Made by a program: the position numbers and the translations under genes. DNA of 64,000 nt from an uncultured Gammaproteobacteria bacterium (GTDB taxonomy: Bacteria; Pseudomonadota; Gammaproteobacteria; UBA9214). The notes below the pieces were generated by a model that worked only from the letters and a program-made list of their open reading frames with translations, was not told where the DNA came from and made no database searches. Below, piece after piece: positions 3,594 through 47,764 of the stretch (position 1 is the stretch's first letter; each line of letters begins with the position of its first letter). Location: positions 32,001 through 96,000 of the forward strand of contig CAVYZN010000027.1 of NCBI GenBank assembly GCA_963773065.1. Direction: 5' to 3'.

Positions 3594-4985
3594 ATGCAAT
3601 ATCTCCCTGTTTTCCTGAAGCTGGAAGGACGTCCCTGCGTTGTTGTCGGCGGCGGCAAGGTGGCGGCTCGCAAAGTTGCCATGTTGCTTAAAGTTAGTGC
3701 GGAAATCATAGTCGTTGCGCCCGACCTGTGTGATGAACTCGAGAAGCTTTACAAGGCAGGCGCAATCCTGCATGCGCGCCGGGAGTTTCAGGAACATGAC
3801 ATAGACGGTATGGTGCTTGCGATTGCGGCAACCAATAATGAGATGGTGAACAGGCAAGTTTCTGCAATTGCGGACGAGCACCGGATTCCCGTCAACGTTG
3901 TGGATACGCCGGAATTATGCAGTTTTATTGTCCCATCAATCATCGACAGGTCACCGGTGCAAGTAGCCGTGTCAACTGGGGGAGCATCGCCGGTACTTGC
4001 CCGCTTGTTGCGCGCCCGTCTGGAAAGTTTCATACCCTCAGCATATGGGCGTCTTGCTGTACTGGTAGATGAATTTAGGCACAAGGTAAAGCAGAAGTTC
4101 ACCGAGCCCAAGCAACGCCGCTATTTCTGGGAGAGTGTGTTGCAGGGCAGGGTTGCGGAATTACTGTTTGCTGGCCGTGAAAAAGAGGCGTGGGCAGCAC
4201 TGGAAGATGCGATCGCAGATACCGACCAGTCCTATAACACATCGGGAGAAGTGTATCTTGTAGGGGCGGGTCCGGGCGATCCAGACCTGATTACTTTCCG
4301 AGCGTTGCGATTGATGCAACAGGCGGACGTGGTGGTTTATGATCGACTTGTATCACAGCCAATTCTGGATATGGTCAGGCGTGATGCGGAAATGATCTAT
4401 GCCGGCAAGGAAAGGGATAACCATGCGCTTTCACAGGAGAGCATAAATGAATTACTCGTCCGCTTGGCCAGGAAGGGTAATCGGGTATTGCGGCTGAAAG
4501 GCGGTGATCCGTTCATATTCGGTCGTGGTGGCGAGGAAATTGAAACGCTCGCAGAAGAGGGCATTCCCTTCCAGGTAGTGCCCGGTATTACGGCCGCCTC
4601 GGGATGCGCGTCATATGCTGGAATTCCCCTCACGCATCGCGACTATGCCCAATCGTGCATATTCGTAACCGGTCACCTTAAGGATGGAAGCGTTGACCTT
4701 GACTGGCAAAAACTAGCCAAGCCTGCCCAGACCATCGTCTTCTATATGGGTCTGCATAGTATCGAAATTCTTTCCAGGGAACTGATTGCACATGGGTTGC
4801 CGGAAGAGACACCCGCAGCGTTGGTTCAACAGGGGACTACACAGAATCAGCGGGTATTCGTCGAAACACTTGCCTCTCTTCCAACCTTGGTCGAGAGGGA
4901 GGAGATCAAGCCACCAACGCTGATAATTGTTGGTGAGGTCGTGAGGTTGCGAGAAAAATTAAAATGGTTCCATAATGACAATTAA
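3594..4985 (+). CDS. cysG: Siroheme synthase (multifunctional CysG)
   Basis: N-terminal [11 protein letters not shown] dehydrogenase/ferrochelatase plus [15 protein letters not shown] and [16 protein letters not shown] methyltransferase. Confidence 0.96.
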
Positions 4986-5005
4986 TGCTTATCAAGCAAC
5001 CGAAG

Positions 5006-5089
5006 CGATCGTATCAGGCAGCGTTGGCTCAATCGTGAAAATTGGGTTGCGTGCTTGGTTGAAATTCGTCCGTTTTTGGATGGGAACTA
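5006..5089 (+). repeat. Degenerate copy of the right end of the ISNCY element at 8852-10536
   Basis: cgatcgtatcaggcagcgttggctcaatcgtgaaa...gaaattcgtccgtttttggatgggaacta aligns with 10456-10538. Confidence 0.85.
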
Positions 5090-5165
5090 TCTATAAGCAG
5101 CGCTGGCAGATCGATTTATTCTTCAAATGGATCAAGCAGAACCTCAAAATCAAGACCTTTGTCTG
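5089..5165 (+). pseudogene. IS4-family transposase fragment
   Basis: IYKQRWQIDLFFKWIKQNLKIKTF matches the IS4 Y-R-E-K signature region. Confidence 0.75.
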
Positions 5166-5588
5166 CGCCAGTAAGGTGACCACACACGGCGCTATGAGGC
5201 GAAAGCCCGGATACCCTATAACCCCTGGCAGCCTGAATCAGATAACAACCATGAGTCAGAGCATATTTCACATCTCAGGCTGTACAAAGATGGGGTCCAC
5301 TTCATAACTCAGTATGAGGTAAGCCCCCGGCTCTGCCGGGGGACTCACCGGGGTTTGACCTATACGGTGGTCGTCCGTGAATCTCCGATCTCTGCCAAGA
5401 GAAGGAGGTTCACCGATGAAAGAGTACCAGAGTCTTAGCCCAACTTCGCGGATTCGCCCTTGATTTGGGGTGTGTCGAAAAAAATCTGCATGGAAATCAG
5501 CTAGCGGTCTGTGGATAAGCCCCGAAAGCCGTTGTAGTGAAGACCTTGCTTGTTTTCTTTGGTGCGCGCGTGCGGATAATGGGTGGCC

Positions 5589-7424
5589 ATGTTTCTACGC
5601 GCGACCACCCGGCGGAAAGATGGCAAGGTGCACCGGTATTGGAGCATCGTCGAGAATCGGCGCCTGCCTGGTGGTCGCGTGTTGCAGCGGCACCTGCTGT
5701 ATCTGGGCGAGATCAATTCCTCCCAGGAGCGGGCGTGGCGCAAGTCGGTCGAGGTGTTCGACGAACGCACCGAGCAATCGCGTTCGCTGTCGTTGTTTCC
5801 CAAAGACCAGATCGACGCAGGCGTGGTGGACGAGTCGGTCGTGCGACTGTGTCTGTCGCAGCTGCGTCTGTGCCGCCCACGGGTGTGGGGCTCGTGCTGG
5901 CTCGCGCTGAAGCTGTGGGAACAGCTTTCGTTGGATCGGTTTTGGTCAGAGCGATTGCCCAAGAGCCGCAAGGGCACACGTTGGGATCAGGTGCTGTTCG
6001 TGCTGGTGGCGTATCGGCTGCTCTCGCCCGGCAGCGAATGGCGCTTGCACCGGCAGTGGTTTGAGCGCAGCGCGCTGTCCGATCTGCTCGGCGCCGATGC
6101 CGGCTTGGCCGACATCCACACGCTGTACGCCTGTCACGATCGTCTGCTGGCACACAAGACCGCGGTCTTCGATCACCTGGTGCGCCGCTGGCGCGATCTG
6201 TTCAACGTCGAATTCGACGTGCTGCTCTATGACCTGACCAGCACCTACTTCGAAGCCAATCCGCCGTTCGATGACGACGACAAGCGCCGATTCGGCTACT
6301 CGCGCGACAAGCGCCCGGACTGCGTGCAGGTGGTCATCGCGCTGGTGGTCACGCCCGAAGGCTTGCCGCTGGCCTACGAAGTGTTGCCGGGCAACACCGC
6401 CGACAAAACCACCTTGCGCGACTTTCTCGCTCGCATCGAACGCCAGTACGGCAAGGCCCGACGCGTGTGGGTGATGGATCGCGGCATCCCGACGGAAGAC
6501 ACCCTCGAGCAGATGCGCCACTCCGATCCGCCGGTGCACTACCTGGTCGGCACACCCAAAGGCCGCTTGTCGAAGCTGGAGAAGGACTTGCTGCTCAAGC
6601 CCTGGCAGGACGCCCGGCCCGGCGTGCAGGTCAAGCTCTTGCCGCAGGACGGTGAGCTATATGTCTTCGCCCAGAGCGCGGATCGCATCGCCAAGGAACG
6701 CGCGATGCGCAAGCGCCAGCTCAAGCGTTTGTGGGCGCGGCTCAAACAGCTTTCCGGCATGACGCTCACGCACCAGGAACTGCTGATGAAGCTCGGCGCG
6801 GCACGCAGCCAGTATCCGTCCGGCTGGCGGCTCGTCGACGTGCAGGTCCACGATCAAAACCCGACGTTCACCTACCGCCTCAAGCGTGACAAACTCAAAC
6901 AGGTCCGCCGCCGCGAAGGCCGTTATCTACTGCGCACCAATCTCACCGGCAACGACCCCGCCGAGCTGTGGCGCTATTACATCCAGCTCACGCAGGTCGA
7001 GGAAGCGTTCAAGAATCTCAAGGGCGATCTTTCGCTGCGGCCGATCTACCACCAGAAAGAAGCACGCATCGAGGCGCATATCTTCATCGCCCCGGTAACT
7101 GCTCCCTGCGTTACCCTACCTCCTGCATCCCTGCAGTCGTTCCTGGCCTACTGCCTGCACGTCACGCTCGCCCAGCAACTGCGAGCGCATGCGCCTGGGC
7201 TGACCCCGCGCAGCGTCCTCGAGAAGTTCGCCGCCGTACAGATAATCGACGTCGAAATCCCGACCACCGACGGTCGAACCGTTACGTTAACACGCTACAC
7301 CGAGCCGGAGCGCGAACTGAAGCTGCTGCTGGAGCGGCTACGACTCGAGCTGCCGGCTCAGCCACCGCCGAAAATCACCGCCGTCCAAGCCGAAACCGCC
7401 ACCCCGTGTAGTGCAGACCTTTGA
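5589..7424 (+). CDS. IS1634-family DDE transposase (with 16-aa in-frame insert)
   Basis: LLYDLTSTYFE, FGYSRDKRPDCVQVV, WVMDRGI, YIQLTQVEEAFKNLKGDLSLRPIYHQ. Confidence 0.93.
   Translation: MFLRATTRRKDGKVHRYWSIVENRRLPGGRVLQRHLLYLGEINSSQERAWRKSVEVFDERTEQSRSLSLFPKDQIDAGVVDESVVRLCLSQLRLCRPRVWGSCWLALKLWEQLSLDRFWSERLPKSRKGTRWDQVLFVLVAYRLLSPGSEWRLHRQWFERSALSDLLGADAGLADIHTLYACHDRLLAHKTAVFDHLVRRWRDLFNVEFDVLLYDLTSTYFEANPPFDDDDKRRFGYSRDKRPDCVQVVIALVVTPEGLPLAYEVLPGNTADKTTLRDFLARIERQYGKARRVWVMDRGIPTEDTLEQMRHSDPPVHYLVGTPKGRLSKLEKDLLLKPWQDARPGVQVKLLPQDGELYVFAQSADRIAKERAMRKRQLKRLWARLKQLSGMTLTHQELLMKLGAARSQYPSGWRLVDVQVHDQNPTFTYRLKRDKLKQVRRREGRYLLRTNLTGNDPAELWRYYIQLTQVEEAFKNLKGDLSLRPIYHQKEARIEAHIFIAPVTAPCVTLPPASLQSFLAYCLHVTLAQQLRAHAPGLTPRSVLEKFAAVQIIDVEIPTTDGRTVTLTRYTEPERELKLLLERLRLELPAQPPPKITAVQAETATPCSADL
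7092..7139. repeat. 48-nt in-frame mini-insert with two hairpins
   Basis: Interrupts conserved HIFIA|FLAYCL with PVTAPCVTLPPASLQS; stems GGTAAC/GTTACC and CTGCA/TGCAG. Confidence 0.75.
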
Positions 7425-7581
7425 GGGTGGTGCCTATATCAATCAAACGCTTGGCGTCTTCGCAAGGCCGAATCCGCGAAGTTGGGCTAGCCATACGAGG
7501 TGGGATTGTAAGTACCATGTGGTATTCATCCCGAAGCGGAGGAAGAAACGGATCTTTGGCGCTGTTCGCAAGCACCTGGGT

Positions 7582-7672
7582 GCTGCGTCGACCTCAACCG
7601 GCTTCGAATCCAGGCATCGAGGTCTCGGAACAGGCATTTGAATTCCTGAATCCCGAAATAGCCCACCCAGCC
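7582..7672 (-). pseudogene. Group II intron RT/maturase (domain X) fragment
   Basis: GWVGYFGIQEFKCLFRDLDAWIRSRLRS matches the GWxxYF...LDxWIRxRLR maturase motif. Confidence 0.7.
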
Positions 7673-8844
7673 ACCGCGTTGGTAACCCGCAGTTTGCAGT
7701 AGGTCAGAATGTTGTGCAGATGGCGCTTGAGCAGATGCGCCACCTCCCGCACCGGTTCCAACCGTGAATGCGTTGCCCACCAGAACCACTTCACGAAGAA
7801 GCGTTTCGCCCAACCCAGGGAGGTGTAGTCCCACAGTGCGCGCAGGCTCTCCTTGATAGCTCAGGCGCGGCCCACCTTGAGGTTCAGGCGGCGTTAGCCA
7901 GGCGAACCTGGCCCGGTGCCTCTCGGGCAAATTCTCGCGTGCATAGCGCCACACATGCAGGGTGCCCTTGAGGGTGTCGTCTTTGCGGGCCAGCAACTCT
8001 TTGTGCTCCTGCTTGCGCACCGTATCCACCGCCGCGTTCATGTGCTGCATGATGTGAAAGCGGTCGAACACGATCTTGTCCTGCGCGCCCGGCACCTGCG
8101 AAAGCGTCGCCCCGATATAGGCCGGCCACATGTCCATGCTCACCGATTCAATACCCTCCAATTGCGCTTCGGTCAGCCCCTTCCAGTAGCCCTCCAGGCT
8201 TTCCGTGGTGCGGTCCTCCGCCCCATACTCCACGCTCGCCCCATCCAGATCGCAGACCACTGTCATGTAGTCGTGGCCCTTGCGAAATGCCTTCTCGTCC
8301 ACCCCCAAGCGCGGGATCACCTTCGCCTGCTTGCGGCGCTGGCCCCGTGCCACCGCACGCTCCATCACGCCCCAGGCTTCATCCCAGGACAAACCCAGCA
8401 GCCGGCACGCCCCGCTCACCGTGGAGCATTGGGTCAATACATCGATCACCAGCCGCTCCATCAGCAGCGTGAACCGCGAACGGACCTCCGCCCACGGCAC
8501 CCGCACCTGCACAACACCGTGTTCCGGGCAATCCACCCGCGGTATTCGTGCATGCAGATGCGTCTGGAACTGGCAGGTGTCCAGATGCCTCCAGACCCGC
8601 TCCTCGGCATGGTCCCGGCAAGACAGCTCGCGCTCACACTGCGGGCAGCTCCACACCGTTCCAGACTCATGCTCCACCCAGATATCCACCCGATGACCCG
8701 CGACATCCAGATCAACTCGCTCCACAGTCCACGGCTTCTCCAACCCCAATACCTGCCGGTACAGATCGATGTCTCGCATGAAGGCTTCCTCCTTGAGAAC
8801 CCTTCATACATAATCTATCTACCCACGGCAATTCCGGAAGGACC
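7673..8844 (-). mobile_element. ISL3-family element, 3'-truncated; transposase 8779 to ~7673 with a frameshift
   Basis: MRDIDLYRQVLGLEKPW..CPQC..RVWRHLD..RVDCPEHG, LGVDEKAFRKGH, MDMW, FDRFH; ends at TNAVA; left end GGTCCTTCCGGAATT at 8844. Confidence 0.88.
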
Positions 8845-8851
8845 ATATTTA

Positions 8852-10536
8852 GTGTCCGTCCATAAACGTTAACGCGATGAAAAGGAATAAGAAAAGCGGC
8901 GTGTTTAGTGATAAAGTTCTGGTGATTTTTGCCATCCATTTTTTCAAGCGACTGAAAACAAAGGAAACACAAAAACCACCGGAGGTGACAATGCGTAAAA
9001 CGCGCACTGACCAAGTGAGTCTATTCGATCGGTTTTCAAATCACGACATTGGCAAGGGACTGAAAGCCATGTCGGAGCGACTCGACCGGCATCGCGAGCT
9101 GCTGGAGTGGGTGGCGCTGGATTTACATCGCAACGATGTCTATGACACGGGCCGCCAGGGTTTGCCGGCGGAGTCGGTACTGCGGTGTGCGCTGCTCAAG
9201 CAATACCGGCAACTGAGTTATCAGGAACTGGCGTTTCATGTGTCGGACTCGGCCTCCTTTCAGGCGTTTGCGCGCCTGCCGGGGAGCCTGTTTCCCAAGA
9301 AATCGGTGTTGCAACAGACGATCAGCCGCATTCAGCCCGCGACCTGGGAGCGGATCAATCACGGGTTGCTGCGGGAGGCCCAGCACGAGAAGGTCGAGTC
9401 GGGTAACAAAGTGCGCATTGACAGTACCGTCACCGAAACGGACATCCATGCACCCAGCGACAGCACGCTGTTATGGGACAGTGTGCGGATCATGGTGCGC
9501 CTGCTGGAGGCGGCCCAGTCGCTGCCGGGTACGCCAGGGATTGAATTTCGCAACCCTCGCCGGCGCGCGAAGCAGCGGGCACGCGCCATCCTCTATACAC
9601 GGGGTAAGGACAAGAAGGACGCGCTGTATCGGGACTTGATCAAGGTCACGACGCACACCTTGGGGTATCTTGAGCAGGCCAGGATGATCTTAACCGTCAC
9701 CGGGAGCGCGACGCTGCAAGGGGAAGCCTGGCAGGCCGAGGTGGCGCATTATCTGCCCTTGATCAAGCGGGTGATTGATCAGGCGGAGCGCCGGGTATTC
9801 CAGGGTGAGCGCGTGCCGGCCGGTGAGAAGCTCTTCAGTCTGTTTGAGCCCCACACCGATATCATTATCAAGGGCAGTCGGGACATCCAGTACGGACACA
9901 AGCTCAATCTCAGTTCGGGAAAAATCGGGCTGATTCTTGATGTGGTCGTTGAAGAGGGCAACCCCGCCGACAGCGAGCGGTTACTGCCCCTGCTGGAGCG
10001 CCATAGCAACCAGTATGGCCGCGCGCCGAAACAACTGGCCGTGGATGGCGGTTATGCCAGCAAGGATAATCTTGAGAAGGCCAAGGGATGCGGCGTCGAG
10101 GATGTGGCGTTCCATAAGAAGCGCGGCTTGCCAATTGAAGCGATGGTGAGGAGTACCTGGGTGTATCGGCAGTTACGTAACTTTCGCGCCGGCATCGAGG
10201 CGGGCATCTCGTGTCTGAAGCGCGCGTATGGGCTCTCGCGCTGCACCTGGAAGGGACTGGTGCATTTCAAGTCATTCGTGTCTGGTCTTCGGTGGTAGCG
10301 CATAATCTGGCGCTGCTGGCGCGTTTAAAACCGGCCTGAAGCCGCGCCAAGGTTGGGTTAGTGTGATGAGTCAGCTGCTCAGGGTTGCTGCTGTGTGCCG
10401 TAGGCAGATCAGCGGCCGTCTTGGTAAAAAAAGCGCATTTTTAACCCGACCGGCACGATCGGATCAGGCCGCGTTGGCTCAATCGTGAAATTGCGTTGCG
10501 CGCTGGGTTGAAATTCGTCCGTTTATGGACGGACAC
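8852..10536 (+). mobile_element. ISNCY-type insertion sequence, complete
   Basis: 17-bp perfect TIRs GTGTCCGTCCATAAACG / CGTTTATGGACGGACAC; 6-bp TSD TATTTA on both sides. Confidence 0.92.
8991..10339 (+). CDS. ISNCY (IS5-like DDE) transposase; small frameshift near 10280
   Basis: RIDSTVTETDIHAPSDS, EKLFSLFEPHTDII, DGGYAS, FRAGIEAGISCLKR; C-terminal WSSVVAHNL in the adjacent frame. Confidence 0.88.
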
Positions 10537-40465: not shown

Positions 40466-42286
40466 CTATTCGATTTCCACCAGGGTTTCATCGGGGTTGA
40501 CCGATTCACCCTTCTTGACGTGGATGGCCTTGATGCCGCCGGCGACGGGGGCCTGTATCTCGGTCTCCATCTTCATGGCCTCGGTGATCAGGACGGGCGT
40601 TCCCGCCGCGACCGTGTCACCGACATTGACCAGGATGTCGACGATGGTGCCCGGCATCGAGGTCGTTACATGTCCGGGCAGCGTGGCCCGCGGCCGCTGG
40701 CTGCCCTTGATGGCGGATTTGCCCGAGGCGGGCGTGCTTTCAAGCTGGATCTCGTCCAGGATCTCGACCAGCACCTCTTCGGGAACGCCATCGACCGTCA
40801 TGTAGAAGGGGCGGTTGTCCTGAGTGCGATGCCCGGTGCCCGTAACCCTGATATGGTAAGTTTCACCGTGCAGGGTAACGTTGAATTCCGTCGGCCGGGC
40901 ATGCTCATTGGCGCGCCGGTTGAAGATCTGTTCCAGGGGTTCCGATACCAGGGCATTTTTGCCGCGTTGTTCGAGAAATTCCCTGCCGATCTCGGGAAAC
41001 ATGGCGTAGGTCAGCACATCCTCTTCGGACTTGGCCAGCTCGCCGATGGACGCGCGCAGGTTGTCCATCTCGTTATCCAGCAGATCGGCGGGACGCACAT
41101 CGATGATGTTTTCATTGCCGATGGCAAGCTGCTGTACGAAGGAGTTGATGCTGGCCGGCGCCTTTCCGTAGCGGCCCTGGAGGTAGAGTTTTACCTCATT
41201 GGTTATGGTCTTGTAGCGTGCGCCGGTGAGTACATTGAGCACGGCCTGGGTTCCGACGATCTGTGATGTGGGGGTCACCAGCGGAGGGAAACCCAGATCT
41301 TCCCGTACGCGCGGAATCTCCTGGAAGACCTCGTTCATCCGGTCCAGGGCGCCCTGTTCGCGCAACTGCGTATACAGATTGGATATCATGCCGCCGGGTA
41401 CCTGATAGACCTGCACCCGGGTATCCAGTCCGGTGAATTCGCTCTCGAACTGGTGGTATTTCTTGCGCACGTCGCGGAAATAAAAACCGATTTTCTGCAA
41501 CGCCTCGAGGTCGAGGCCGGTGTCGTATTCGCTGCCGCGGAATGCCGCGACCATGCTTTCGGTCGCCGGATGGCTGGCGCCGCCCGCAAACGCGGAGATG
41601 GCGGTGTCGATATGACAGCAGCCGTTCTCGATGGCTTTCAGCATGCACATCTCGGAAGTGCCCGCGGTGGCGTGGCTGTGCAAATGTACCGGGAGACCCG
41701 TGGCCGTGACGATTTCACGGACCAGTTCACCCGTCACCATCGGTGTCAGCAACCCTGCCATGTCCTTGATCGCCAGGCTGTCGCATCCCAGGGATTGCAG
41801 GTCCTTCGCCAGGGTCACGAAGGTCTGGATGTTATGCACCGGGCTGGTGGTGTAACAGATCGTGCCCTGGGCATGCTTGCCGGCCTGCCGGGTGGCGTCG
41901 ACGGCGACCTCCAGGTTGCGGATGTCGTTCAGGGCATCGAAGATGCGGAATACGTCTATGCCGTTCTCGGCGCTGCGCAGGACAAATTCACGCACCACGT
42001 CATCCGAATAATGCCGGTAACCGAGCAGGTTCTGTCCCCGCAGCAGCATCTGCAGCCGGGTATTGGGCAGCGCCGCGCGCAGGCTGCGCAGCCGTTCCCA
42101 GGGATCTTCCTTGAGATAGCGCAGGCAGGCGTCAAACGTGGCGCCACCCCAGACCTCCAGTGACCAGTAGCCGATGCCGTCTAGCTGCTTGCAGATCGGC
42201 AGCATGTCCTCGGTGCGCATGCGGGTCGCGATCAGCGACTGGTGGGCATCGCGCAGAATGAGATCCGTTATGTGTACCTTGGGCAT
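40466..42286 (-). CDS. pycB: Pyruvate carboxylase subunit B / OadA-like carboxyltransferase with biotinyl domain
   Basis: LRDAHQSL, WGGATFD, IKDMAG, VTPTSQIVG, biotin site EAMKME. Confidence 0.88.
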   Translation of the reverse strand: MPKVHITDLILRDAHQSLIATRMRTEDMLPICKQLDGIGYWSLEVWGGATFDACLRYLKEDPWERLRSLRAALPNTRLQMLLRGQNLLGYRHYSDDVVREFVLRSAENGIDVFRIFDALNDIRNLEVAVDATRQAGKHAQGTICYTTSPVHNIQTFVTLAKDLQSLGCDSLAIKDMAGLLTPMVTGELVREIVTATGLPVHLHSHATAGTSEMCMLKAIENGCCHIDTAISAFAGGASHPATESMVAAFRGSEYDTGLDLEALQKIGFYFRDVRKKYHQFESEFTGLDTRVQVYQVPGGMISNLYTQLREQGALDRMNEVFQEIPRVREDLGFPPLVTPTSQIVGTQAVLNVLTGARYKTITNEVKLYLQGRYGKAPASINSFVQQLAIGNENIIDVRPADLLDNEMDNLRASIGELAKSEEDVLTYAMFPEIGREFLEQRGKNALVSEPLEQIFNRRANEHARPTEFNVTLHGETYHIRVTGTGHRTQDNRPFYMTVDGVPEEVLVEILDEIQLESTPASGKSAIKGSQRPRATLPGHVTTSMPGTIVDILVNVGDTVAAGTPVLITEAMKMETEIQAPVAGGIKAIHVKKGESVNPDETLVEIE

Positions 42287-45751: not shown

Positions 45752-46716
45752 TCTATTCCCGTATCACTGGAACCGGCGGTTATTTACCCGAGAAGGTGCT
45801 GACCAACCATGATCTCGAGAAGATCATGGATACCAGCGACGCGTGGATCCGGGATCGCACCGGGATCTACAAACGTCATATCGCCGCCGGTGACGAGACC
45901 ACCTGTGATCTCGCCGAGATCGCGGCAAACCGCGCCATGGAGGCGGCCGGTCGCACCCCCCGGCAGATCGACCTGATCGTTTTCGCCACCACGACGCCCG
46001 ACCGCGTGTTCCCGAGTACCGCGTGCCTACTGCAACAGCGGCTGGATATTCATGGGACGGCGGCCTTTGATGTACAGGCGGTGTGTACCGGTTTTATCTA
46101 CGCGCTGGGTATCGCCGACAAATTCATACGCACCGGCTCCTCGCGCTGCGCCCTGGTGGTCGGGGCGGAGACGCTGTCCCGTATCGTCGACTGGAATGAC
46201 CGCAGTACCAGCATACTGTTTGGCGATGGCGCCGGGGCGGTCGTGTTGGAGGCCAGTGATGAACCCGGCATACTCTCCACGCACCTGCATGCCGATGGCA
46301 GCTACGAGCATCTGCTGACGGTGCCGGCCGGCATCTCCTCCGGCTATGATAAGGTGCAGAGCGGGCAGGCCTATGTCCAGATGCAGGGCAACGAGGTCTT
46401 CAAGATGGCGGTGAATACGCTGGGGCGCATCGTCGATGAGACACTCGCCGCCAACAAGCTCGACAAGTCCGATGTCGACTGGCTGATTCCCCACCAGGCG
46501 AATATCCGCATCATCCAGGCCACGGCCAAGAAACTGAAAATGTCCATGGACCGGGTGGTGGTGACCGTGGATGATCACGGCAATACTTCGGCGGCCTCTG
46601 TCCCCCTGGCGCTGGATGTGGCCGTGCGCGACGGGCGTATCCAGCGTGGCGAAACCCTGCTCATGGAGGCGTTCGGTGGCGGTTTCACCTGGGGTTCGGC
46701 CTTGCTCAAGTACTAG
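45748..46716 (+). CDS. fabH: Beta-ketoacyl-ACP synthase III
   Basis: AVCTGF, FGDGAGA, PHQAN, GNTSAAS, GGGFTWG. Confidence 0.96.
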
Positions 46717-46809
46717 CCCGCAATTCTCACCGGGCGGCGGCAGATCAGTAACTATGCGAGCTTTGCGCCTTTGCGGTGGACAAGCCGGTTTATCTTTTCT
46801 CTGCTGACG

Positions 46810-47764
46810 ATGAAGACATCTTTCAATAACGCCGATCAGACGCTTGCCATGGTGTTCCCGGGGCAGGGGTCCCAGTCCGTGGGCATGCTGTCCGGGCTGG
46901 CGCAGGACTTTCCGTTGGTGAGCGAGACGTATCGGGAAGCCAGCGATACCCTGGGTTATGACCTGTGGAAACTGGTCATGGAAGGCCCTGCCGAGGAACT
47001 CAATCTAGACCGACCGGACGCAGCCTGCGATGCTCGCGGCGGGTGTGGCCGTGTGGCGCATCTGGCGGGCGCAAGGCGGTAGGCATCCCGCCGTCATGGC
47101 GGGACACAGCCTGGGTGAATATACGGCGCTGGTCTGCGCCAAGGCGCTGGCGTTTACCGATGCCATAAGACTTGTGGCCGCGCGCGGCCGTTGTATGCAG
47201 GAGGCGGTCGCGGCAGGCAGCGGGGCGATGGCGGCCATACTTGGCCTGAGTGACGCGGATGTTACCGATGTCTGCGCGCGGGCGGCCGAGGGGCGCGTGG
47301 TCGCCGCCGTCAACTTCAATTCACCCGGCCAGGTGGTGATAGCCGGCGATGCCGGGGCCGTGCGGCGTGCGATCGAACTGGCAAAGGCGCGCGGCGCGAA
47401 ACGCGCCGTCCCCTTGCCGGTCAGCGTGCCGTCCCACTGCGAGCTGATGCGCCCGGCAGCAGACCGGTTTGCGGAACATCTGCAGCAGACGGTGATCAGA
47501 GCGCCGGCCATCCCGGTCATCCAGAATGCCGATGTGACGGCCCACGATGACCCGGCCGCCATCCGAGACGCGCTCAAGCGGCAGTTATACAGTCCGGTAC
47601 AGTGGATGAGAACGGTGGAATCGATGCGCGGCGCCGGCATCCAGCGTATTCTCGAGGCCGGTCCGGGCAAGGTCCTCACGGGTCTTTGCAAACGCATCGA
47701 CAAGGAACTGATTACGGCGGCGGTTTATGATCCGGACAGTCTGAACGCGGCATTGAACGCTTGA
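46810..47764 (+). CDS. fabD: Malonyl-CoA:ACP transacylase (frameshift ~47005)
   Basis: FPGQGSQ, GHSLGEY, NFNSPGQ, VSVPSHC. Confidence 0.94.

Follow-up and report, generated by a model that had tools for sequence, protein, structure and literature searches.

A two-hairpin mini-element inserted in frame in an IS1634-family transposase gene, and its probable place among REP-like repeats

A 64,000-nucleotide stretch of DNA from an uncultured gammaproteobacterium (hereafter the window; positions 32001-96000 of contig C27 in a 33-contig, 3.84-Mb assembly) carries a transposase gene of the IS1634 insertion sequence (IS) family whose open reading frame (ORF) is interrupted by 48 nt and yet stays open. 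What is this insert, and how did it come to lie in the coding sequence of another mobile element? A preliminary description had taken it for a tiny mobile repeat that could distribute binding sites for the RNA-binding regulator CsrA/RsmA. We find that it is one complete copy of a dispersed repeat, here called L-S for its two hairpin modules L and S. The family has exact ends, filled and empty alleles, recurrent insertion at one site, hairpins that covary and a wide spread among gammaproteobacteria. In our judgment L-S is very probably a bipartite, non-coding mobile mini-element resembling the GTAG-tagged repetitive extragenic palindromes (REPs), with exact ends and a marked site preference.

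The insert (coordinates in Table 1) has the sequence CCGGTAACTGCTCCCTGCGTTACCCTACCTCCTGCATCCCTGCAGTCG and encodes the peptide PVTAPCVTLPPASLQS, which is placed between EAHIFIA and FLAYCL of the host protein. The preliminary description had recognized these as 16 extra codons that split a conserved segment in frame, and the homologues agree: EAHIFIAFL(A/S)Y is contiguous in 118 of the best 120 homologues listed, the insert-bearing entry is the window's own protein, and one further homologue (591 aa) did not fit the regular expression used for contiguity. The host ORF matches Pfam DDE_Tnp_1 (E 1.1e-11), and its close homologues, which are 591 aa long without the insert, carry the source name IS1634 family transposase, so that domain and names together place the gene in that family. 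Contigs of relatives from four unrelated metagenome runs join position 7091 to 7140, or 7089 to 7138, and skip exactly 48 nt; the limits that had been assigned to the insert are thus exact. Within the window, the 48-mer matches once at up to 3 mismatches (0 expected by chance). When residues 488-535 were used for a protein search, the window's own protein alone was recovered among 3212 candidates, but the two insert-bearing proteins described below (C11 and L169) also went unrecovered, so the searched collection lacks them and this blank says little. An AlphaFold2 model of the filled transposase, based on a 33-sequence alignment, reached a mean predicted local distance difference test (pLDDT) score of 46.6 and a predicted template modelling (pTM) score of 0.28, with residues 441-572 below pLDDT 50, too low for the model to help in placing the insert. 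A search of Protein Data Bank sequences with the same alignment returned nothing at E<=1.

The insert belongs to a repeat family. In the whole genome the 48-mer gives 30 blastn-short matches at E<1e-3, and by the same program the L module has 40 matches of at least 20 nt, versus 0 in the reversed genome, while the S module has 49 of at least 13 nt, versus 2. These matches group into 53 clusters. In about 14 of them the L and S modules form the canonical unit, 47 or 48 nt long depending on one base in the L loop; the remaining clusters include arrays in which L and S are interspersed, in both orientations, with a third hairpin module, TGCACA[TCCC]TGTGCA. Approximately 7 of the 34 L-bearing clusters, which hold some 40 L modules overall, sit in ORFs that have known domains or are long. 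The copy count that the preliminary description had recommended therefore gives the opposite of a unique 48-mer shared by all close homologues: the repeat is dispersed and homologues lack the 16 residues. Because filled and empty sites both exist, the view of a tiny, non-autonomous, dispersed repeat is borne out.

The two modules have distinct architectures. The L module follows the general form GGYAAY-(T/C)-GY[TCC(N)K]RC-RTTRCC, after which come CTAC and CTCC, with the CTAC at 7116-7119 reading GTAG on the opposite strand. The S module follows CTRCA[TCCC]TGYAG, with a stem of 5 base pairs, and ends in TCG; its reverse complement in the window is CUGCAGGGAUGCAG, which contains CAGGGAUG. Both strands of the 48-mer are predicted to fold into two hairpins, the reverse strand at -17.6 kcal/mol (z -4.9) and the plus strand at -14.8 kcal/mol (z -5.9), and in neither case were any of 200 shuffled sequences as good. 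The loops on the reverse strand are GGGA and AGGGA, with a third GGA in the linker (CAGGAGG), just as the preliminary description had drawn them.

Covariation supports these stems. We aligned 47 units from other genomes that share a common L stem, hand-picked from 80 cross-taxon loci listed, with other L types excluded. Stem cells are paired in 98.6% of cases versus 94.4% in column shuffles (0 of 500 reach this level), and 27 cells carry changes on both sides where 5.2 are expected (again 0 of 500), with compensatory change at 4 of the 13 stem pairs; the aligned units are related sequences, and these figures overstate their independence. In the L stem, a 22-nt hairpin, 98.0% of cells are paired and 3 of 8 pairs have changes on both sides, and the middle pair of the S stem covaries between G-C and A-T (33 GC, 9 AU, 1 other). 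As a control, sliding the stem partners lowers pairing to 17-45%. None of the 47 units has lost the TCC of the L loop, GGA on the opposite strand, even though the search pattern left this loop free and the base before the GGA varies. By contrast, the S loop and CTAC were fixed by the cross-taxon search pattern, and independent support for CTAC comes from the BLAST matches in the source genome only. The L module thus has what is expected of a REP, namely a stem-loop of 20-40 nt with compensatory changes and an unpaired GTAG at one foot of the hairpin.

The movement of L-S can be traced at IS1634-type genes, of which the source genome holds several paralogues. Where the window copy (type A) reads ATCGCC[CCGG...GTCG]TTCCTG, type A paralogues on contigs C5 and C14 read ATCGCC|TTCCTG. 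A second type of IS (type B), with 67% DNA identity to the window copy, provides a closer pair: the filled copy C11 (611-aa ORF) and the empty copy C5b (595-aa ORF) are 99% identical and differ by 16 substitutions plus the 48 nt over ~2030 nt, the empty site reading ...GTGAGC|TTTCTC... and the filled one ...GTGTGC[TCGG...GTCG]TTTCTC.... Filled and empty pairs show no target duplication and no terminal inverted repeats (TIRs), as the ends TCGG... and ...GTCG are not inverted. When metagenome contigs were scanned for the S end joined to FLAY codons, three stretches were returned, two of which are IS1634-type genes with L-S at the same bond. One (L168) is type A-like, with 82% DNA identity to the window copy; the other (L169) is type B-like, 95.2% identical to C11, and has an open 611-aa ORF. 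The comparison among IS1634 copies for which the preliminary description had called thus covers 18 loci, of which 4 are filled at the identical bond (window, C11, L168 and L169), 11 are empty and 3 fall outside the regular expression. These last three lack the 48-nt insert, as judged by alignment lengths for two and by a 7-nt gap for one. The filled copies span lineages that are 67-82% identical to each other. The third stretch from the scan, L170, has no L module and was rejected as a chance match.

One feature of this site deserves mention in its own right. At 6 nt downstream of the insertion point, the IS sequence (GGCCTACTGCCTGCA; window 7140-7165) resembles the L/S junction of the element itself (GCCCTACCTCCTGCA; 7113-7127), with 12 of 15 positions alike in a by-eye comparison and a rough post-hoc chance estimate of ~0.04. 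As a pseudo-recognition site, it could explain the IS1634 hot spot.

L-S recurs at other preferred sites as well. A miniature inverted-repeat transposable element (MITE) is hit at GCGTTCTT|TGCG, that is, GCTTTGCGTTCTT|TGCGYCTTTGCGGTG, where a strict regular expression finds 16 empty and 2 filled copies (48 and 69 nt), and further MITE copies with variant arms are filled beyond this count. The palindromic repeat CCCTCACCCCAACCC|TCTCCC...GGGAGAGGG hosts L-S in ~15 of the 80 cross-taxon loci listed, as counted by reading. With L-S found inside two IS1634 types, an IS21-like IstA gene, a small MITE and a palindromic repeat, the earlier phrase "a parasite of a parasite" is apt. The target sequence, which the preliminary description had left to be defined, is a weak flank logo over 81 units, YYC^T(G/C)(C/T), with C at -1 in 70 and T at +1 in 70; a fixed target tetranucleotide was not seen, only YYC^T. 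A preference for hairpin loops was considered and rejected, since the junction falls in a predicted loop in 24 of 81 excised targets versus 40 of 162 controls (p 0.44), although overall folding of the excised targets is slightly stronger than that of controls (-9.9 vs -8.5 kcal/mol, p 0.008).

The MITE-like family in the source genome has inverted arms CACCGCAAAGACGC...GCGTCTTTGCGGTG around an AT-rich centre, with at least 18 right arms fitting the strict expression; examples lie at C11:126750-127000, C11:155560-155760, C5:22445 and C9:159707. It is the commonest host of L-S insertions, and the copy at C2:40772-40902 has L-S in both arms, in inverted orientation. In the palindromic repeat, CCCTCWCCCYRRCCC|TCTCCCnnnnGGGAGAGGG, L-S occupies the same position in Pseudomonas, Stutzerimonas, a metagenome-assembled genome (MAG) of Natronospirales and other MAGs (loci L055, L056, L057, L059, L064, L071, L082, L088, L089, L112, L119, L121 and L124, and C14:158516 in the source genome). 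The composite of repeat and L-S may move as one unit.

How do genes tolerate such an insert? Three of the six reading frames of the L-S unit are stop-free, as read from its sequence, and the window copy landed in one of them, so that the transposase ORF is lengthened by 16 residues and remains open. A Ser/Thr kinase gene with a 69-nt insert likewise keeps an open 534-aa ORF, with the Pkinase domain at residues 8-248 and the insert in a linker at approximately residues 305-328. An HsdR-like gene carries a 48-nt in-frame copy, but a frameshift, and an internal deletion beside a second L copy, make this gene look degraded. An IS21-like IstA gene is split into ORFs of 156 and 371 aa by a 47-nt L-S, and this split form is present twice in the genome; frame neutrality is therefore not a rule. 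Among independent intragenic events, 4 of 5 have lengths divisible by three (48, 48, 48 and 69 nt) and one is 47 nt, compared with 4 of 9 intergenic copies at 48 nt, a small sample that takes in the degraded-looking HsdR host. The filled type B genes C11 and L169 differ with a nonsynonymous rate (dN) of 0.018 and a synonymous rate (dS) of 0.158, a ratio of 0.11, and two of their 22 amino acid differences correspond to a compensatory stem pair inside the insert. These values fit a filled transposase that is still under constraint, though they do not establish that it is active, and they also fit constraint on the hairpin rather than on the peptide. Thus, the suggestion that the insert is tolerated because it is frame-neutral holds for the open ORF and the low dN/dS between two filled copies and fails for IstA, and a bias toward lengths divisible by three is visible in a sample too small to establish it.

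Two of these hosts have further peculiarities. In the HsdR-like type I restriction gene (C14:157200-159300) the frameshift follows a GSGKSLT motif, and the internal-deletion junction carries an L module together with the palindromic repeat. At C14:29260-34496, an IS1634-type copy is split by an insertion of ~3.4 kb that holds the L-S-split IS21-like IstA, so that elements are nested three deep; a second instance of the broken IS21-like segment is at C11:~234100.

L-S is rare yet very widely spread, with little sequence change. A search of 61 genomes found the L pattern in 13; 36 were further members of the family, 12 of them positive, and 24 came from other families, none of them positive. A 25-nt pattern that spans the L-S junction occurs in at least 111 stretches across gammaproteobacteria; among the stretches listed are Pseudomonas, Ectopseudomonas, Stutzerimonas, Methylomonas, Methylobacter, Methylovulum, Methylomicrobium, Marinimicrobium, Paraglaciecola, Lysobacterales, Chromatiales, Sedimenticola and many gammaproteobacterial MAGs. 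Carriers in culture include strains of Methylomonas methanica and Ectopseudomonas chengduensis. When the class was sampled evenly, 1-2 copies each were found in 4 of 400 other genomes (from four families), versus 14 in the source genome. The element is near-identical across gammaproteobacterial orders, unlike most REP families. In the plasmid and viral-contig collections searched there is no sign of a plasmid or phage vehicle: L-S is in 0 viral contigs and in 2 plasmid records, both of them Pseudoalteromonas replicons of ~850 kb with 85% identity. The element's sequence strings were not found in the literature searched.

As a REP-like mobile element, L-S is mobile now or was so until recently. 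It enters DNA as an exact block of 47-48 nt, usually between C and T and without target duplication, and its preferred sites include the HIFIA|FLAY codon boundary of IS1634 transposase genes, the interior of the MITE and the interior of the palindromic repeat. It is also possible, although we put this forward tentatively, that a structure-specific HUH/Y1 enzyme similar to the REP-associated tyrosine transposases (RAYTs) acts in trans on the unit and moves it as a folded single strand. This mechanism is suggested by the anatomy of L-S: its hairpins, GTAG tag and seamless ends, and the lack of duplication.

Several observations weigh against a REP-like mobile element. The type B copies form the tree ((C11 filled, C5b empty), L169 filled), with empty outgroups that are 85% identical, and one gain followed by a seamless loss in C5b fits this pattern as well as two gains do. 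At 3 nt from the junction, C5b has a derived T-to-A substitution. Under either history, however, the L-S unit moves and the IS1634 bond is preferred. No mobilising gene was found in the source genome or at the loci examined. The genome has 10 Y1_Tnp matches, made up of IS200-type genes and four RAYT-like genes, and these four are flanked by short inverted repeats of their own with no L-S within 350 nt. A RAYT flanked by L-S, the sort of associated enzyme that the preliminary description had proposed to look for, was accordingly not found, and in this respect L-S falls short of a REPtron. There is no tblastn match to Y1 proteins at L-pattern and L-S-junction loci, most of them taken with 300-nt flanks, and two L-bearing relatives (G012 and G033) are without any Y1_Tnp match. 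Nor does co-occurrence discriminate, as Y1_Tnp is present in 48 of 54 family genomes. The orientation of L-S relative to local GC skew is 16:13 (p 0.71, low power), whereas a strand-biased single-strand transposon might show such a link. The C^T junction recalls the cleavage at CT reported for TnpAREP (PMC8266576), yet it lies on the strand opposite GTAG. Finally, ~40 copies are few for a REP.

The RAYT-like Y1 genes lie at C11:147976-148644, C28:~46300-47025, C8:39664-40521 and C17:85844-86575. They encode 222-285 aa where the ORF ends are clear (the limits on C28 are not), with inverted repeats such as GGGGACATT...AATGTCCCC. All four match the 'TIR-associated tyrosine transposases' as these are characterized in PMC3733652. 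Runs of a GAAGTGA heptamer (gaagtgagaagtgagaag...) adjoin two L-S arrays, at C9:~132560-132640 and C9:~178420-178480, and another run is located upstream of the RAYT-like gene on C17 (~85700).

The preliminary description went further and proposed that L-S could spread CsrA sites or sponge CsrA. On this alternative L-S is selected as an RNA module, whose reverse-strand hairpins bind CsrA/RsmA and either add sites or, in arrays, act as sponges like CsrB or RsmZ. The resemblance is real. The reverse strand has CUGCA[GGGA]UGCAG, GC[AGGGA]GC and CAGGAGG, CA(N)GGA(N)G is preserved as a loop motif in every L-S module, on the same strand each time, and the GGA of the L loop is the one retained in all 47 aligned units. 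The S variant CUACAGGGAUGUAG fits RUACARGGAUGU, the SELEX consensus, at 11 of 12 positions (PMC7652899). The same source gives CsrB repeats as CAGGA(U/A/C)G in hairpin loops, and L-S shows what the consensus drawn from it leads one to expect of a CsrA-binding small RNA (sRNA), namely GGA recurring in hairpin loops that fit CA(N)GGA(N)G (PMC7652899). The genome encodes one CsrA, its three densest CA(N)GGA(N)G windows are arrays of L-S modules, and the canonical CsrB, RsmY and RsmZ sRNAs were not found in it, which we count in favor of an RNA module.

The arrangement of the copies, however, bears no trace of such use. Of the intergenic loci that lie between co-directional genes (17, on crude gene calls based on GC content at third codon positions), 8 have the GGA strand in sense and 9 in antisense orientation, and the copies inside coding sequences (CDSs) divide into 3 sense and 3 antisense. 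The copy in the window has its GGA on the antisense strand, on which no promoter-like site was seen between 6600 and 7700. Eight element-bearing loci have no Rfam match at E<=1; of the Csr models run separately, CsrB gave none, RsmZ reached only E 0.44, and RsmY reached only E 0.58, on one L-S array. No sRNA linked to a GacA box was seen and no box lies next to the arrays, in which modules point both ways. Wobble pairs favor neither strand (7 vs 4, uninformative), and a DNA-binding enzyme would explain the conservation of the loops equally well. The public runs provide contigs that hold no strand information, and none contains more than 26% of the sampled words, so they give no expression readout for either strand. 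Literature searches pairing REP with CsrA gave nothing relevant by title or abstract, and those pairing MITE with CsrA, RsmA or GGA gave Csr work only. A CsrA function for L-S is plausible on paper, but the resemblance is without sign of use, and we consider selection as an RNA module unlikely. A related proposal, to which we give slightly less credence still, is that L-S is a mobile cassette of CsrA/RsmA sites, conserved because the RNA specificity of CsrA is conserved, that rewires or buffers the Csr regulon; homing to a conserved codon of the IS1634 transposase would then be a separate property at the DNA level. If L-S hairpins did bind CsrA in vivo, L-S would be the first mobile element to carry binding sites of a global RNA regulator.

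Two observations made along the way concern the same motifs. Between co-oriented tRNA genes at C5:~41160-41560 (L047:~1500-1900) there is a ~380-nt array of hairpins with GGA/TCC loops. Its GGA strand is the tRNA strand, and with 9 CA(N)GGA(N)G motifs in 300 nt it outranks every other window of the genome. The best RsmY match in the genome, at C9:41087, lies inside a proB-like CDS and was rejected as false.

A different account of the IS1634 hot spot is that the insert was passed among IS1634 copies by gene conversion or recombination, such that the shared site reflects one old event. Flanks are indeed conserved between the IS types, with 19 of 20 nt alike a short way upstream and 27 of 30 alike downstream, and C11 and L169 share the insert with two differences inside it, which match their overall 95.2% identity. 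Yet types A and B disagree at 5 of the 9 nt that adjoin the junction on its left, the junction being exact nonetheless; the L stem is GGTAAC in the window, L168 and L169 and GGCAAC in C11; and the 16 substitutions that separate C11 from C5b show no clustering around the insert. Homologous recombination is therefore an unlikely carrier. Moreover, homologues 81-91% identical to the window protein are empty, whereas L168, with only 82% DNA identity, is filled, and L-S has also inserted at many unrelated sites. We consider spread by recombination improbable. That the 16 residues are an ordinary lineage-specific part of the transposase, or an assembly artefact, is hardly credible, for although the host ORF is intact and the copy is single in the assembly, nearly all of the best homologues listed lack these residues (118 of 120), the same DNA is found ~30 more times in the genome, and in many taxa with covarying stems, and filled and empty alleles are found in independent data sets.

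Where does a REP-like L-S stand among known small elements? MITEs such as Correia/NEMIS or ERIC are small non-autonomous repeats that can lie in transcripts and genes, and they have TIRs and target duplications. L-S is likewise small, non-autonomous and present in genes, but it is not a MITE because it has neither TIRs nor target duplication. IS200/IS605 elements and their gene-less derivatives, the palindrome-associated transposable elements (PATEs), have a hairpin at each end, no TIRs, no target duplication and seamless empty sites, all of which L-S shares. However, the L-S hairpins lie 2-3 nt from the ends, the target is only YYC^T, no tnpA is linked and no GC-skew bias is apparent, and L-S cannot be classified as an IS200/IS605 derivative. 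Rickettsia palindromic elements (RPEs) are palindromic repeats of ~100-150 bp, confined to Rickettsia, that sit in frame inside ORFs that stay open, and L-S resembles them as a palindromic insert in frame in open ORFs. RPEs are CGTC-tagged according to PMC3733652. Unlike them, L-S measures 48 nt, is GTAG-tagged and gammaproteobacterial, and has a frame-breaking 47-nt copy. Small palindromic repeats in general are usually species-specific and extragenic, and their movement is rarely caught.

The closest likeness is to GTAG-tagged REPs, whose signature is GTAG plus a bulged hairpin, and for which intragenic copies, as well as RAYTs flanked by unrelated TIRs, have been described (Di Nocera et al. 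2013, PMC3733652). Like these REPs and the bacterial interspersed mosaic elements that they form, L-S has an unpaired GTAG at the foot of a hairpin, a bulged stem and a GC-closed loop (PMC3733652 and PMC8266576). It also shares with them compensatory stem changes in subfamilies, mosaic clusters and occasional intragenic copies, and the source genome, like REP genomes, has RAYT-like genes flanked by unrelated TIRs. Unlike REPs, L-S consists of two dissimilar hairpins in a fixed pairing, 47-48 nt in all and exact-ended. It is present in ~40 copies rather than hundreds, is not RAYT-flanked and is not species-specific, and it shows marked hot spots that include a transposase codon boundary. With the units of CsrB, RsmY and RsmZ, as outlined in PMC7652899, L-S shares CA(N)GGA(N)G in short loops plus a linker GGA, several per unit; unlike them, it has no Rfam Csr match and no GacA-box promoter that we could find, and it occurs in both orientations and also inside genes. 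By its anatomy, then, L-S functions as a GTAG-tagged REP does, and within genes it behaves like the palindromic in-frame inserts of Rickettsia and other species. What is new is an exact-ended, fixed two-hairpin unit that is near-identical across orders and has near-consensus CsrA hairpins, together with repeated hits on one conserved bond of the IS1634 transposase and on one MITE site. With exact ends and matched filled and empty sites, L-S is a tractable case for how REP-like DNA moves and picks its targets, and it permits testing whether one mobile element can parasitise, and perhaps disable, the transposase of another.

Table 1. Features at the L-S insertion (window positions)
Feature	Position	Strand	Length	Basis and remarks
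L-S mini-element, one complete unit	7092..7139	+	48 nt	In frame within the transposase ORF; sequence, 48-nt skip in relatives' contigs, filled and empty paralogues, 30 genome matches
L module	7092..7123	+	32 nt	Bulged hairpin GGTAAC-T-GC[TCCCT]GC-GTTACC at 7094-7115, then CTAC (7116-7119), CTCC
S module	7124..7139	+	16 nt	Hairpin (C7123)TGCA[TCCC]TGCAG, then TCG; fold, covariation
IS1634-family DDE transposase ORF (host gene)	5583..7424	+	613 aa	ORF list, Pfam DDE_Tnp_1; the 16 inserted residues are aa 504-519
IS1634-like element, approximate extent	5521..7489	+		blastn homology with the C5a paralogue (78% identical, contig C5); the limits are those of homology to that copy, not mapped true ends

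The surroundings of the insert, from 4975 to 10298, form an IS graveyard. An IS200-like N-terminal fragment (7411-7641, plus strand) overlaps an ISL3 transposase ORF (7526-8779, minus strand), and the C-terminus of the latter shows a match to a maturase domain of group II introns. On the plus strand, 8877-10298 is occupied by an IS5-like DDE/DUF772 ORF, and a YREK-like IS4 remnant is found at 4975-5307.

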